The notes under the pieces were generated by a model. It did no database searches and was not told where the DNA came from. It saw nothing but the letters and a program-made list of their open reading frames with translations. From IMG/VR virus record IMGVR_UViG_3300035661_000005: DNA of 64,000 nt. One strand, given 5' to 3'. The position numbers and the translations under genes are program-made. This DNA is from a virus. Its lineage: Duplodnaviria > Caudoviricetes. The stretch's first letter is position 1. Every line of letters starts with the position of its first letter. Shown one piece after another: positions 43,702 to 64,000 of this stretch.

Positions 43702-44772
43702 ATGATCGCCGCCAACGTCGTACGTCGTTTCCTCGCCTCAGGCATCCCGGACCTGCAGGGCATCCAAGACAACCTGGAAGCGCTCAAGGAGCTGGATGCG
43801 AACCTCACTGGCATCGAGGATGCGTTCGATAACCACTTCGATCTGACGGCGGCGAGCGCCCTGGAGCCTGTGGTCGACTCCCAGATCAAGAGCATCTTGA
43901 AGGCAAAGGAGGGCCTCAAGGCAGCCCAGGAGATGGTCAAGCAGACGGACATCATCCTGAACGCCTTCCCGGACGAGAAGGGGGCGCTCAAGACCAAGGC
44001 GGAAGCCGTCAAGATGGTCGAGCGCTTCACCAAGCACATGGAGGCGGCGCGGAAGATCGTCCGGACCATCTCGAAGAAGGCTCAGCCGGACGCCCTCAAG
44101 AAGGAAACGGCCATCGCGGAGAAGCTCATCTCGGCGCGGCTGGTGAACCCGGCGGCCCTCGACGTGATCCACTGGCAGACGCTGGAGCGAGGCTACATCC
44201 CCGGGGCCTACGGCCGTGACCAGAACGTCAAATGCGTGACCATGCTCTCGATCTTCCGGATCGAGGGCTCGCCCTGGAAGCGCAACGAGGGGGAGCCGAC
44301 CCTCCGGGAGTCCACGGACGCCCGCCTCCCTGGCGTTCACTGGACCATCGGCTACGAGCGGTCCGCCGGACCGTCGAGCGGCAAGGACTTCGCCGAGGCG
44401 GTCTTCAAGGCGCTCCGTGGGTGGCCTGGCCTCAAGGGTGAGGCCGAGGCTACCCAAGCGCGAGCGGGCACGGCGGCAGCCATCGCGAAGAAGCTCGACT
44501 CGGTCGCCCAAAGGCTCACTCGGCTCGACCACGACCGCGTCGAGATCTCGGACGACAAGACGGAGATCTCCACGTCGTACCGCTCGAACCTCCCGAAGGA
44601 GGGTGCGTACGATGTGGGTTCGTCCCGTTACGAGGAGATGGTCTCGGCCGAGATCAATAGGTGTCGGAGGACGTTGGATCCGGAGATCGCCAACTGGAAG
44701 GACGCCATCAAGAGCGTCGACGTCCACGACGGCGAGAAGGGCTGGATCTACATCACGGTCCGGCTGAAGTAG
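43702..44772 (+). CDS. Hypothetical helical protein with N-terminal NVVRRF motif (putative virion cargo)
   Basis: 356 aa; begins MIAANVVRRFLAS. Confidence 0.65.
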   Translation: MIAANVVRRFLASGIPDLQGIQDNLEALKELDANLTGIEDAFDNHFDLTAASALEPVVDSQIKSILKAKEGLKAAQEMVKQTDIILNAFPDEKGALKTKAEAVKMVERFTKHMEAARKIVRTISKKAQPDALKKETAIAEKLISARLVNPAALDVIHWQTLERGYIPGAYGRDQNVKCVTMLSIFRIEGSPWKRNEGEPTLRESTDARLPGVHWTIGYERSAGPSSGKDFAEAVFKALRGWPGLKGEAEATQARAGTAAAIAKKLDSVAQRLTRLDHDRVEISDDKTEISTSYRSNLPKEGAYDVGSSRYEEMVSAEINRCRRTLDPEIANWKDAIKSVDVHDGEKGWIYITVRLK

Positions 44773-44774
44773 GG

Positions 44775-44802
44775 TTGATCGGGGGCGTGTAGGCCCTGTA
44801 GA
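44775..44802 (+). promoter_or_regulatory. Promoter-like motif TTGATC-N16-TGTAG(A/G) (first of four copies)
   Basis: Same 16-nt spacing at 44775, 47354, 52349 and 53395. Confidence 0.6.
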
Positions 44803-44808
44803 TGGATC

Positions 44809-45057
44809 ATGGCAAAGCTCACGAAGTTCTGGGTGGTCCGGGACCCGAGCCCCGTCTCCGAGATCAACGACATCCTCTTCGAATCCGATCCGGTCAAGTA
44901 CGCGGCCTACTGCGTCGGGGCCGGGTACCGCAATGTCAAGGACGAGCACACCGCGGTATACACGACCGAGGGCGAGGCCAAGAAGGACGCCCTGGCGCGG
45001 CTCCAGGCGGAGAAGAAGCCCGTCTCGCCGTACCGTGCCCCGCCTCCCGAGGGGTAA
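44809..45057 (+). CDS. Hypothetical protein, 82 aa
   Basis: Good codon bias; ATG 6 nt after TGTAGA. Confidence 0.6.
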   Translation: MAKLTKFWVVRDPSPVSEINDILFESDPVKYAAYCVGAGYRNVKDEHTAVYTTEGEAKKDALARLQAEKKPVSPYRAPPPEG

Positions 45058-61268: not shown

Positions 61269-61425
61269 CCGCTACACGATCCTCCGGCCGAACCGGCCTC
61301 CCCTGTCCTTCGTGGACCCGCGGGAGGCCGTTCGGTACCTGATCCGGACGACCGGCCCCGCCAAGATGCTCGACCGGCGCGGGAGGGTCCTGATGCCCTG
61401 CGTGCTGGTCGAACAGATCGGCTGA
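61255..61425 (+). CDS. Small hypothetical protein, 56 aa
   Basis: MSEADRYTILRPNRPPLSF...; strong codon bias; below the ORF-track cutoff. Confidence 0.5.
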   Translation: MSEADRYTILRPNRPPLSFVDPREAVRYLIRTTGPAKMLDRRGRVLMPCVLVEQIG

Positions 61426-61438
61426 CGCGACGGTCCGC

Positions 61439-63094
61439 CTACTTCGCTTGCAGATAGCGAGCGACGACGCGGGCCTGCATCGAGGAGAGGACAGAGCGGA
61501 ACGACTCAAGCTGGTCCCGCGTCATCTCTTTCTCGGTCACGTAGTAAGAAAAGGCCTCCGCGAACGCTTCGCTTTCGTTGCTCGCCCCGTAGGTCGAGAC
61601 CGGAAGCACAGGACGCCGATCCTCGGGGGAGACCTGTCGCTTCATCGCGTTCTCGACTTGATCGAGGAACATGAGCGCGTGCGTCAGATACCCCGCCTGA
61701 AGTTCCCAGGCGACGTCGATCCAGTGGTAGACCCGCCGCAGATTGTCTCGCGCGGTGAGAGGCTCGTACTGCCCGACCCCCGGGATGTCCTTGAGCGCCT
61801 CCAGGTGCGCGGTGAGCTTCTGCTGCGCCGTAACTGCATCCTCGTAGGCGTTCTTCGGCAGCCCACCGAGAAGCCCGGGCGACGAGAACTCGACGAGGTT
61901 CGGCGGCTCCACGTACTGCATCGAATCCGTGAGCGTCGCGTGCTGGAGCGCGTCGGCGATCATCTCGTCCGGGGTGACCTGTGCATCCGGGGGCGTCACG
62001 AACTTGTCGGCCTTCGAGAGATCCTCTTTGAGACGCTTGAGGGCGCTCGGAAGATAGTCGATGAACGTCCCCAGCTCTTTGCGGGCGGCCTGGGTTTTTG
62101 ACTCCCATCGTCGCGGATCGACCACGGGGTCCGTCTTCACGCGGAGCAGTGACTCGAACTTCCGTCGCTGTCCCTCGTGCATGAACTTGAACCAGTAGCG
62201 GTGCCCCAGCTCGTGCGCGAGCAGTTCCACAACGCCATGACTGGGACGCTGGTAGATGTTCACGACGTCGGGGCCGTAGGGGTAGTCGCCGCCGACACCG
62301 TACTCCGAGCCGTTCGGGTTGACCCCCCCACACTCGTCGCACTTCACGAAGATCGTCCCGTACCAGACGCGATCGAGCTTCTTCGCCTTGAGCATGTGGT
62401 ACGTCTCGTCGAAGAGCCGGACGTACTTCTTGGCGAGGTTCGAGTTCACGGTGCGGTCGTCGATGACGACCTTCATCCCGTAGAGATCGAACTGCGACTC
62501 GGCGCTCTGACCCCAGTCCTTCTCGATCCGCTCCGGGTTGACCTTGCGGGCTTCTTCGATCTCTGCGGCCTCGGCTCGAAGAAGCCCCAACACGTCGTCG
62601 AAGAGTTCGGTGAGGTGCCCATTTCGGGTCTTGTTCCAACGCCCCTTGGACGGGTCCGGGCGGGTCTGGACCTGAACTTCCAGCATCTCGTGGAACTTCG
62701 TCCGGTATAGCTCGAACATCCGTTCGGCATCTTCCGGCGTGAACGTCCCTAGGGGCATCCTGGTCGTGTGCGTCGCAACGCGCATCCAGTGCTGGGCCTT
62801 GCCCCGGAGGTCCAGCACCTGATCCCGAAGCTTCTTGAGCGCGACCCGCAGCTTGTTGGGCCGTTCCTTCGACTCGGAGTTCACCATCGAGGGGGACAGG
62901 CGGACGAGTCGGATCTGCTCCTCTAGCTTGTCGACGAACGCCACGAGCTTGTCGAAGGCTCGAAGCACGTCGTGCCAATCCGAGATCGTAGGATGCAGAA
63001 GCGAGAGCCACCCACGACGCACGGCCATGAGCCAAGACTTCGTGAGCATCTCGGCCTGGAACTGACGGGCCACACGTTCTTGCACGGAGATCAT
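61439..63094 (-). CDS. HExxH zinc metallopeptidase (anthrax-LF-like motif spacing), 551 aa
   Basis: LAHELGHRYW ... VSTYGASNESEAFAEAF; RVARQF at the N-terminus and RVVARY at the C-terminus. Confidence 0.7.
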   Translation of the reverse strand: MISVQERVARQFQAEMLTKSWLMAVRRGWLSLLHPTISDWHDVLRAFDKLVAFVDKLEEQIRLVRLSPSMVNSESKERPNKLRVALKKLRDQVLDLRGKAQHWMRVATHTTRMPLGTFTPEDAERMFELYRTKFHEMLEVQVQTRPDPSKGRWNKTRNGHLTELFDDVLGLLRAEAAEIEEARKVNPERIEKDWGQSAESQFDLYGMKVVIDDRTVNSNLAKKYVRLFDETYHMLKAKKLDRVWYGTIFVKCDECGGVNPNGSEYGVGGDYPYGPDVVNIYQRPSHGVVELLAHELGHRYWFKFMHEGQRRKFESLLRVKTDPVVDPRRWESKTQAARKELGTFIDYLPSALKRLKEDLSKADKFVTPPDAQVTPDEMIADALQHATLTDSMQYVEPPNLVEFSSPGLLGGLPKNAYEDAVTAQQKLTAHLEALKDIPGVGQYEPLTARDNLRRVYHWIDVAWELQAGYLTHALMFLDQVENAMKRQVSPEDRRPVLPVSTYGASNESEAFAEAFSYYVTEKEMTRDQLESFRSVLSSMQARVVARYLQAK

Positions 63095-64000
63095 TGCGCG
63101 CCCTCATCGGTAAGCGATGGGATACCCATTTCTTTGAGGAACCGGGCCACCACCTTAGAAGACATCGAGGAGATCACGGACCGGAACGATTCGAGCTGAT
63201 CTCGGGTGATCTCCCGCTCCATGACGTAGTGCATGAAGACCTCGGCGAAGGCCTCGCGAATGTTCGATTCGCCGTAGTCAGAGACAGGCGCCACACGCGA
63301 TTCGTCCCTCGGGTCGAACTTCTGGGCTTCGTTCGCGATACGGCGAGCGTATGCCTCGACCGCCTCCGCCCAGCCCTTGAAGGCCTCGTCCCAGGGTTTG
63401 TGTGTCTTCTTGATGGTCGCCTCGAAGCGCGTCCACGAGTTCGCGATCTCCGCGAGCTTCTCGGAGTCCTCGGCAAGCGGTCGGATGCCCGCTTCCGACG
63501 TGTACTTGCTGAGCGTCGTCACGAGCGTCTGGATGTTCCTCACGTAGCCCGCCACAAGGTCGTTGAAGTCTCGCTTCACGTCGCTCGGGAGCAGGTCCCG
63601 ACGCTGATAGCCCATCGCAGCGTCGACCAGTTGCTTGCACGCCCAGTAGATTTTCTGGATCGGGTTCGCCATCGGCACCTTCGGCCGATGCTTGTTCCGA
63701 TCCGGCGCGCGAACCAAGTCCTCGAACTTGGCGCGCTGGCCCGAGTCCATGCTCTTGAACCAGTAGCGGTGCCCCAGCTCGTGAAGCACGAGTTCGATGA
63801 CGAAACGTGCGGGCCGCGTGAAGATGCGCACGACGTCTTCGCGGGACGTGTAGTTTCCGCCGACGCCTCTCGACGTGTTCGGATTCTCGCCGCCGCAGCT
63901 CTCGCACTCGATCAAGACGGTCCCGTACCACGCCTTGTGGAGCTTCTTCGCGCGCAGGAGCGCGTACGCCTCGTCGAGAAGCCGAATGTAGTCGCGAATC
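63091..64000 (-). CDS. HExxH zinc metallopeptidase paralogue (5' end beyond window)
   Basis: Frame open to the edge (IRDYIRLLDEAYALLRAKKLHKAWYGT); VLHELGHRYW ... VSDYGESNIREAFAEVF; KVVARF near the C-terminus. Confidence 0.7.
   Translation of the reverse strand, partial: IRDYIRLLDEAYALLRAKKLHKAWYGTVLIECESCGGENPNTSRGVGGNYTSREDVVRIFTRPARFVIELVLHELGHRYWFKSMDSGQRAKFEDLVRAPDRNKHRPKVPMANPIQKIYWACKQLVDAAMGYQRRDLLPSDVKRDFNDLVAGYVRNIQTLVTTLSKYTSEAGIRPLAEDSEKLAEIANSWTRFEATIKKTHKPWDEAFKGWAEAVEAYARRIANEAQKFDPRDESRVAPVSDYGESNIREAFAEVFMHYVMEREITRDQLESFRSVISSMSSKVVARFLKEMGIPSLTDEGAQ

Follow-up and report, generated by a model that had tools for sequence, protein, structure and literature searches.

A portable peptide tag on unrelated proteins of uncultured huge phages and its genomic coupling to clpX

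Background

The 64,000-nucleotide stretch of viral DNA analysed here (IMG/VR virus record IMGVR_UViG_3300035661_000005; Duplodnaviria, Caudoviricetes; the whole stretch is hereafter called the window) is a 64% GC segment of an uncultured giant phage. Several of its proteins carry at one or both ends a peptide of about 10 residues with the short consensus [S/D]-L-A-x-R-V-[A/V]-x-R-[F/Y/W]-[L/V], in many copies of which L stands directly before R. This peptide is a real and portable tag, borne at termini or in linkers, spread across a clade of uncultured phages of 0.3-0.5 Mb and coupled in the genome to clpX; that it is a docking tag is nearly certain. Judged from sequence, its most likely reader is the ClpX protein of the phage itself, a proposal that is put forward tentatively.

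Phages of this size (0.3-0.5 Mb) encode hundreds of proteins without assigned function. A label shared by about 2-3% of the proteins would group peptidases, a topoisomerase, an anti-Thoeris-like protein and a toxin-like kinase into one pathway, and thus offers a handle for finding the common partner of otherwise unconnected genes. If ClpX is the reader, these phages would supply a specificity factor of their own for regulated unfolding or proteolysis, along with a clientele marked by a linear motif. The literature searched yielded no paper on this motif or on the clientele of phage ClpX, and no description of such a clientele being marked by a linear motif. Being portable, the tag could also find use in targeted degradation or tethering. 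New here are the non-orthologous replacement of tagged genes beside clpX, the tagged metallopeptidases that flank clpX, a position-swapping module of 55 amino acids (aa), structural models of the tags and a negative control in other ClpX-encoding phage lineages.

The tag in the window

The initial annotation had listed seven peptides as instances of one terminal motif. They were scored with a weight matrix of 12 columns built from 74 distinct homolog termini (consensus [S/D]-L-A-x-R-V-[A/V]-[A/R]-R-[F/Y/W]-[L/V]-A; threshold at least 14 bits). All seven are present in the window sequence, and six of them are true copies of the tag, as given below.

43714-43731, + strand: NVVRRF, at residue 5 of the protein encoded by 43702-44772; matrix window MIAANVVRRFLA, 24.3 bits
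51576-51593, + strand: KVMARF, at residue 7 of the 264-aa protein encoded by 51558-52352; diverged, 14.2 bits
53222-53239, + strand: RVVARF, 3 residues before the stop of the 69-aa protein encoded by 53042-53251
61454-61471, - strand: RVVARY, at the C-terminal end of the peptidase encoded by 61439-63094
63059-63076, - strand: RVARQF, at the N-terminal end of the same 551-aa peptidase
63139-63156, - strand: KVVARF, 15 residues before the stop of the gene ending at 63091

The seventh peptide, SKVVQRA (51416-51433, + strand), scores below 12 bits and lies inside a 790-nucleotide (nt) stretch without coding bias in third-codon-position GC, and was therefore struck from the list. The proteins that carry the six copies, and the ClpX protein considered as their candidate reader, are encoded as follows.

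43702..44772, + strand: 356-aa protein without assigned fold (family A of this analysis, hereafter the 43702 family); N-terminal tag; two genes upstream of clpX
45099..47357, + strand: ClpX, the candidate reader; Hint/LAGLIDADG intein in the Walker A loop; zinc-finger N-domain at about 45120-45215
51558-52352, + strand: 264-aa protein; N-terminal KVMARF; orthologs near clpX in the relatives G007, G010, G013 and G016
53042..53251, + strand: 69-aa protein; conserved 55-aa module followed by a C-terminal tag; ends in ...SLALRVVARFTSR
61439..63094, - strand: HExxH metallopeptidase, 551 aa; tagged at both ends, both tags being isolated low-confidence helices in the AlphaFold (AF2) model
63091..64000, - strand: HExxH metallopeptidase paralogous to its neighbour (E 1e-37); 5' end cut by the window edge; C-terminal KVVARF

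The matrix matches the window proteins five times, against 0.15 matches in shuffled proteins and none in reversed proteins, and all five matches are terminal, at most 15 residues from a protein end. With a looser pattern, six of the six matches in called genes fall within 15 residues of a protein end (random-placement P about 3e-7), and there are zero matches among the roughly 20,000 internal residues of the window proteins. The KVMARF copy is marginal when taken alone; at this position its orthologs in G007 and G010 have strong copies (DLVHRVANRYAA and DLVHRVATRYAA). When the tag is masked, the two peptidases are still recognisably related and every other pair of tagged proteins gives E>0.2, so that the carriers are indeed unrelated but for the peptidase pair, as had been claimed. 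The further claim that the motif is confined to termini holds within the window and fails in the relatives, where tandem copies and copies in inter-domain linkers occur. The observation of the tag is thus confirmed as genuine.

Distribution, placement and predicted shape of the tag

Genome-wide statistics were drawn from four relatives, namely G001, which is the closest and is syntenic with the window, G003 (complete, 411 kb, 44% GC), G019 (complete, 407 kb) and G020. At 111.7 kb, G001 is estimated to cover 23% of its genome, whose full size would then be about 0.5 Mb. Matrix matches number 7 in G001, where the tag sits on proteins other than the carriers of the window, and 17 in G003, against shuffled expectations of 0.2 and 0.6, respectively; G019 has 11 matches, against 2 with the reversed matrix. 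The genome-wide density of the tag is 0.5-0.8 per 20 kb, about 2-3% of the proteins carry it, and its carriers within the clade fall into 20 or more unrelated protein families. In four genomes pooled, 30 of the 42 matches are terminal, against 15.8 expected from random placement within the same open reading frames (ORFs; P<5e-5).

Dozens of homologs of the 43702 family and of the peptidase start with M-x-x-L-A-x-R-V-A-x-R-[FYW], many of them also end in the same peptide, and one has two tandem copies. Across the clade the tag is placed at N-termini, at C-termini, in tandem and in inter-domain linkers, often with two copies per protein. In the AF2 models of two unrelated window proteins it forms a short detached helix off the confident core, with a predicted local distance difference test (pLDDT) score of about 40-58. 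The model of the doubly tagged peptidase has a pLDDT of 80 and that of the 43702 protein a pLDDT of 85; in the latter the tag lies in a detached helix of residues 2-12 (pLDDT about 51), followed by coil. Owing to these detached helices of low pLDDT and the varied placement, the tag is regarded as a free linear motif rather than an element of a fold. It has an amphipathic periodicity, with hydrophobic residues at L1, A2, V5, A6, F9 and L10 and Arg at positions 4 and 8.

Genomic coupling of the tag to clpX

ClpX is encoded in 18 of the 21 tag-bearing huge-phage records, including six of the seven that are at least 90% complete. Phages that have a homolog of the peptidase and are without ClpX (G020, G023-G025 and G027-G030; 58-100% complete) are also without tags in the DNA examined, namely the whole of G020 (99% complete) and about 6-8 kb around the distant peptidase homolog in each of the others. 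In the 20-kb regions centred on clpX in 16 relatives (320 kb), 43 matches were found, against 1 with the reversed matrix, giving a tag density of 2.7 per 20 kb around clpX, to be compared with the genome-wide 0.5-0.8. In the two complete genomes taken singly, 6 of the 17 matches in G003 (0.87 expected, P 3e-4) and 3 of the 11 in G019 (0.6 expected, P 0.02) lie within 10 kb of clpX.

The coupling extends to the genes that abut clpX. Sixteen tagged ORFs, distributed over 11 of 19 genomes, lie within 100 bp of it, so that tagged genes occupy 16 of the 38 positions flanking it, whereas they make up about 3% of all genes; the nominal P value of 8e-15 is too small, as are the others, since clpX belongs to a conserved syntenic block that also comprises the 51558 and 53042 families and a DUF1848 gene, and the genomes are therefore not independent. 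With the tag masked, 24 families can be told apart among the tagged ORFs near clpX. The tagged gene just upstream of clpX in the window is not homologous to its counterpart in G001 (E 0.45), whose ClpX protein is 70% identical to that of the window. This is a non-orthologous replacement that keeps the tag, and not merely one inherited gene. In addition, clpX is flanked by small tagged HExxH peptidases in G001, G006, G009, G012, G016 and G019, which belong to the same superfamily as the pair in the window. The tagged genes of the window are contiguous and co-oriented with clpX, thymidylate synthase and the genes of replication and nucleotide metabolism, and not with head genes.

Some further observations concern this neighbourhood. 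In G001 the small tagged metallopeptidases on the two sides of clpX (HELGHRY.., E-x-FAE) are encoded by 107903-108850 and 110265-111614 (L039 12903-13850 and 15265-16614). The DUF1848 gene of the window (53456-54292; PF08902, E 7e-32) has counterparts of 47-66% identity within 10 kb of clpX in 14 relatives. Just downstream of clpX in the window, a 94-aa protein (47388-47672) contains two degenerate tag-like peptides, SVSLRVDYMV near the N-terminus and VPRIVARPRR near the C-terminus, both of which are under the matrix threshold.

ClpX as the candidate reader

The window ClpX has an intact Cys4 zinc finger (zf-C4_ClpX), the GYVG pore loop and an LGF (IGF-type) ClpP-docking loop. The four zinc-finger Cys residues are kept in all 18 ClpX proteins of the clade, and the clade-specific RPRNEVK signature is invariant among them, together with GYVG and the [ILMV]GF loop. 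ClpP is absent from four of the five complete genomes.

The docking site on ClpX would probably be the N-terminal zinc-finger domain, by analogy with the adaptor SspB. A tag on a flexible end or linker would dock there in the manner of the XB tail of SspB, and the accessory proteins bearing it (the metallopeptidases, the 43702 and 51558 families and the protein with the 55-aa module) would be held at the unfoldase; in the relatives, the docked clients would include topoisomerase IB, a Tad3-domain protein and a zeta-toxin-like kinase. The simplest outcome would be timed degradation through the ClpP of the host, for instance a scheduled removal of early effectors, which is suggested by the phage ClpX keeping its pore and ClpP-docking loops while most of the genomes are without ClpP. 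Alternatively, the tagged proteins may be adaptors or partners of ClpX. The frequent double tags fit a multivalent reader.

Several observations weigh against ClpX as the reader. The residues implicated in peptide binding by the E. coli zinc-binding domain, L12, L13 and H23 (PMC8808172), are not conserved in the clade, which has an invariant Asn at the position of H23 and no Leu-Leu before the first Cys; hence, if this domain reads the tag, its pocket differs. The tag and ClpX are both traits of one clade, and another clade-specific protein could therefore be the reader. No match to the tag was found in 485 kb from other ClpX-encoding phage lineages. The majority of the tagged genes are distant from clpX (11 of 17 in G003, 8 of 11 in G019), G013 encodes ClpX and yet has no tag within 10 kb of it, and the notion that the 43702 family always stands beside clpX was ruled out by three more distant contigs in which the two are not adjacent. 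The syntenic block described above, and the few tagged genes that lie next to head genes, such as that of G019 at 117.3 kb beside a terminase-like match at 118.8 kb, belong on the same side of the balance. It is also not obvious why enzymes and anti-defence-like proteins would be tethered to an unfoldase. A complex prediction of the ClpX zinc-finger dimer with Zn and the 69-aa tagged protein scored 0.01 (mark 0.32), which speaks neither for nor against binding.

Certain side observations bear on ClpX itself. The clpX genes of G006, G016 and G019 contain an intein, as does that of the window; the ClpX of G001 has none. In G015, a stand-alone protein of 176 aa (261646-262176 = L157 3646-4176, + strand) combines a helical N-terminal half with a C-terminal zinc-finger domain of the ClpX type that looks cellular. 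This protein could act as a decoy or as a second reader. The protein encoded two genes upstream of it starts with the tag-like VVARVAARVL.

Alternative explanations

Somewhat less probable than recognition by ClpX, though a serious possibility, is docking of the tag on some other clade-specific hub protein, with clpX merely lying within a conserved island of accessory genes. The conserved block that unites clpX with several tagged genes, the single clade history of the tag and ClpX, the location of most tagged genes elsewhere in the genome and the lack of conservation of the E. coli contact residues (PMC8808172) all speak for this explanation, and the presence of a further independent tag, YSYDRR, in the same genomes suggests several hub systems. 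On the other hand, the tagged genes that abut clpX come from several unrelated families and include a non-orthologous replacement at the same position, two complete genomes have a tag density around clpX that exceeds their mean 4-7 times, and no candidate protein can be named for such a hub.

The initial annotation had interpreted the peptide as a capsid-targeting or cargo-loading signal that anchors effectors in the procapsid for co-injection. Known capsid-loading analogues are the capsid-targeting sequence (CTS) of phage T4, the cargo-loading peptides of encapsulins and the C-terminal coat-binding helix of the P22 scaffold. The part of that interpretation which sees a portable address tag on unrelated proteins is borne out by the enrichment, the terminal and linker placement, the conservation among homologs and the tag-keeping non-orthologous replacement; the capsid as destination lacks specific support, and we consider it unlikely. 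The tagged set is effector-like and suited to early delivery (HExxH peptidases, topoisomerase IB, the Tad3-domain protein and the zeta-toxin-like kinase), double tags would suit a repetitive shell, and tagged genes of G003 at 22.4 and 31-34 kb are near a capsid-like match at 26 kb. The G019 gene beside the terminase-like match also agrees with capsid loading; the capsid-like match of that genome is at 133 kb. In addition, ClpX and ClpP themselves have been detected in phage G virions (PMC12484599). Against this, the tagged genes of the window adjoin clpX and the replication genes and not head genes, the enrichment beside clpX is left unexplained, and the C-terminal and linker copies and the apparent lack of a conserved cleavage site after the tag are unlike the T4 CTS (PMC5694885). 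Inspection of the tagged sequences revealed no shared cleavage motif after the tag, no formal motif search having been made.

The two proposals can also be combined: ClpX may read the tag and pass the unfolded effectors into the procapsid, from which they would be injected. A connection of head loading with ClpX deserves to be kept in view because ClpX of jumbo phages has been speculated to translocate unfolded proteins or to aid virion assembly (Iyer et al., PMC7824862) and because ClpX was detected together with ClpP in phage G virions (PMC12484599).

Less probable again than capsid loading is that the tag couples a modular AAA+ protease, in which small HExxH metallopeptidases, bearing the tag at one end or at both and encoded on either side of clpX, would dock on the ClpX hexamer as its proteolytic partners. 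An FtsH-like machine of unfoldase plus metallopeptidase would then be assembled in trans in phages that are mostly without ClpP, and the other tagged proteins would be adaptors or substrates.

It is very improbable that the tag is a general amphipathic helix without a specific reader, serving membrane binding, as do the targeting helices of MinD, FtsA and MreB, or self-association. Membrane-targeting helices are found at either terminus, the hydrophobic positions and the Arg residues at 4 and 8 fit such a helix and AF2 draws the tag as one. However, highly diverged homologs and unrelated proteins alike keep the identities of R, V, R and the aromatic residue much more strictly than amphipathicity would need, the tag is absent from other phages, and the coupling to clpX is unexplained. 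Lastly, an artefact of chance or of a proteome rich in Arg, Ala and Val, whose codons are enriched in a 64% GC genome, is refuted by the shuffled and reversed controls (0-2 matches against 5-43 observed), the equal enrichment in the 44% GC relative, the terminal bias and the orthologous conservation.

Comparison with known peptide tags

The closest parallel is the C-terminal XB tail of SspB (RGGRPALRVVK), which docks on the N-terminal zinc-binding domain of ClpX (PDB 2DS8; PMC3983244, PMC8808172). An A-L-R-V-V core is common to XB and to the window sequence ...SLALRVVARF, and both peptides are on a flexible segment and position-independent. Multivalent use is a feature of both, and a ClpX with an intact zinc finger is encoded beside the tagged genes of the phage. 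The phage tag differs in being longer, as it requires an Arg three positions and an aromatic residue four positions beyond the core, and is probably helical. Moreover, XB is carried by one adaptor, whereas the phage tag occurs on at least 20 unrelated families of enzymes and accessory proteins, and its binding to ClpX is predicted by likeness. The initial annotation considered use at either terminus to be new; this needs some qualification, since the XB tether is reported to work whatever its position in the polypeptide (PMC12373786).

The T4 CTS, 10-20 residues long, is a propeptide at the N-terminus that is removed by cleavage (PMC5694885), and its carriers are given as IPI-III, Alt and gp24 (Mullaney & Black 1996, as cited in PMC5694885). 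It is likewise a short portable peptide that sends unrelated proteins to one place, and the cargo of the phage tag is effector-like. The CTS differs in being strictly N-terminal and removed by the prohead protease, the phage tag being also C-terminal, tandem and internal, and the genes bearing the phage tag cluster with clpX and not with head genes. The cargo-loading peptides of encapsulins and the encapsulation peptides of bacterial microcompartments are short and terminal, occur at either end and load unrelated enzymes into a shell, and the HK97 fold is common to encapsulin shells and phage capsids; the consensus of these peptides differs from that of the phage tag.

Pore-engaged degrons of ClpX (C-motifs of the ssrA type, N-motifs and the C-terminus of MuA), reportedly described by Flynn and colleagues in 2003, are said to act at either terminus and to require the extreme end. 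In contrast to these, the phage tag lies 3-15 residues inward and also in linkers, so that tethering fits better than pore engagement; a degron of the ssrA type was ruled out by sequence and position. A twin-arginine translocation (Tat) signal (S/T-R-R-x-F-L-K plus h-region, N-terminal only) was also rejected, as most copies of the tag have a single Arg before the aromatic residue and polar residues after it, and many are C-terminal.

Tagged proteins and gene content

Most of the tagged proteins are without a family in Pfam and PHROGs. For the 43702 protein and the 51558 protein, the protein atlas gave no usable match, and a PDB fold search gave no match at E<=0.001 for the model of the 43702 protein or that of the peptidase. 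In the peptidase, H294, E295 and H298 and the E509-A-x-A-E513 block are invariant among 24 homologs. It matches the Pfam family ATLF (PF07737, anthrax lethal-factor-like) at 19 bits, below the cut-off of 27.4, and some of its homologs carry PF07737. The stop of the 63091-64000 peptidase gene overlaps the start codon of the 61439-63094 gene.

The 55-aa module of the 69-aa protein (window 53042-53206; MPSPVDxY..NPxYSDEQAWATAWSIYCKH..PGS) is 57-76% identical across genomes of 44-64% GC, with homologs at L134 12167-12646, L136 6222-6701 and G003 about 297396-297557. It is fused to varied C-terminal domains and the tag is always alongside it, after the module in four relatives and before the module in two. 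The module has no Pfam family; among PHROGs it weakly matches the N-terminus of a family annotated as 'head maturation protease' (E 0.004). A frameshift that would extend the 69-aa gene was considered and discarded, since inspection of the three frames over 53000-53480 gave no evidence of it.

Among the proteins tagged in G003 are a topoisomerase IB that bears the tag twice in tandem, a zeta-toxin-like kinase, an OAS-like protein and one with a Tad3 domain. The Tad3-domain protein (96360-97631; L087 16360-17631) has 423 aa, an N-terminal tag MDAQKVAARFAA and a 'type I Thoeris inhibitor' domain (PF25185, E 2e-24), by which it is an anti-defence candidate among the tagged proteins.

Genes of the window were called from codon-position GC bias and later with a codon-usage score. 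They encode, among others, a DnaB-like helicase, a family A DNA polymerase, an SNF2 helicase, a thymidylate synthase and several very large ORFs. Four of the genes contain Hint/LAGLIDADG inteins, as listed below.

20302-23424: SNF2 helicase
26465-31276: family A DNA polymerase
32489-35443: AAA ATPase
45099-47357: ClpX (in the Walker A loop)

Two stretches, 50769-51557 (790 nt) and 52353-53041 (690 nt), are without coding bias within an otherwise tightly packed gene array.

The proteins of the window recur on one 200.8-kb contig in the protein database, and homologs of the 43702 family and of the peptidase are mostly on contigs of 0.2-0.66 Mb. A megablast search of window positions 51-64 kb against GenBank phages gave no match, and protein searches of GenBank phages retrieved a single uncultured 485-kb record and nothing else. 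A scan of viral contigs with the peptidase as a single protein gave no match; an alignment-based scan did find relatives.

A second tag

Homologs of the 43702 family bear either the tag described above or a second N-terminal tag, M-(S)-YSYDRR, at the same place, and the second tag also takes that place in some peptidase members. YSYDRR sites were located in G001 (83151-83168 and 101481-101498; L034-L039), L124 (10934-10951, - strand), L041 (6549-6566) and the homologs P0004, P0007, P0010 and P0022. The idea that YSYDRR replaces the RVAxRF tag in other clades was abandoned, as the two tags coexist within single genomes. The peptidase homologs P0049, P0050, P0073 and P0097 end in a C-terminal variant, REEPCxxxYSYxR, and in G010 the YSYDRR tag is on the gene just upstream of clpX.

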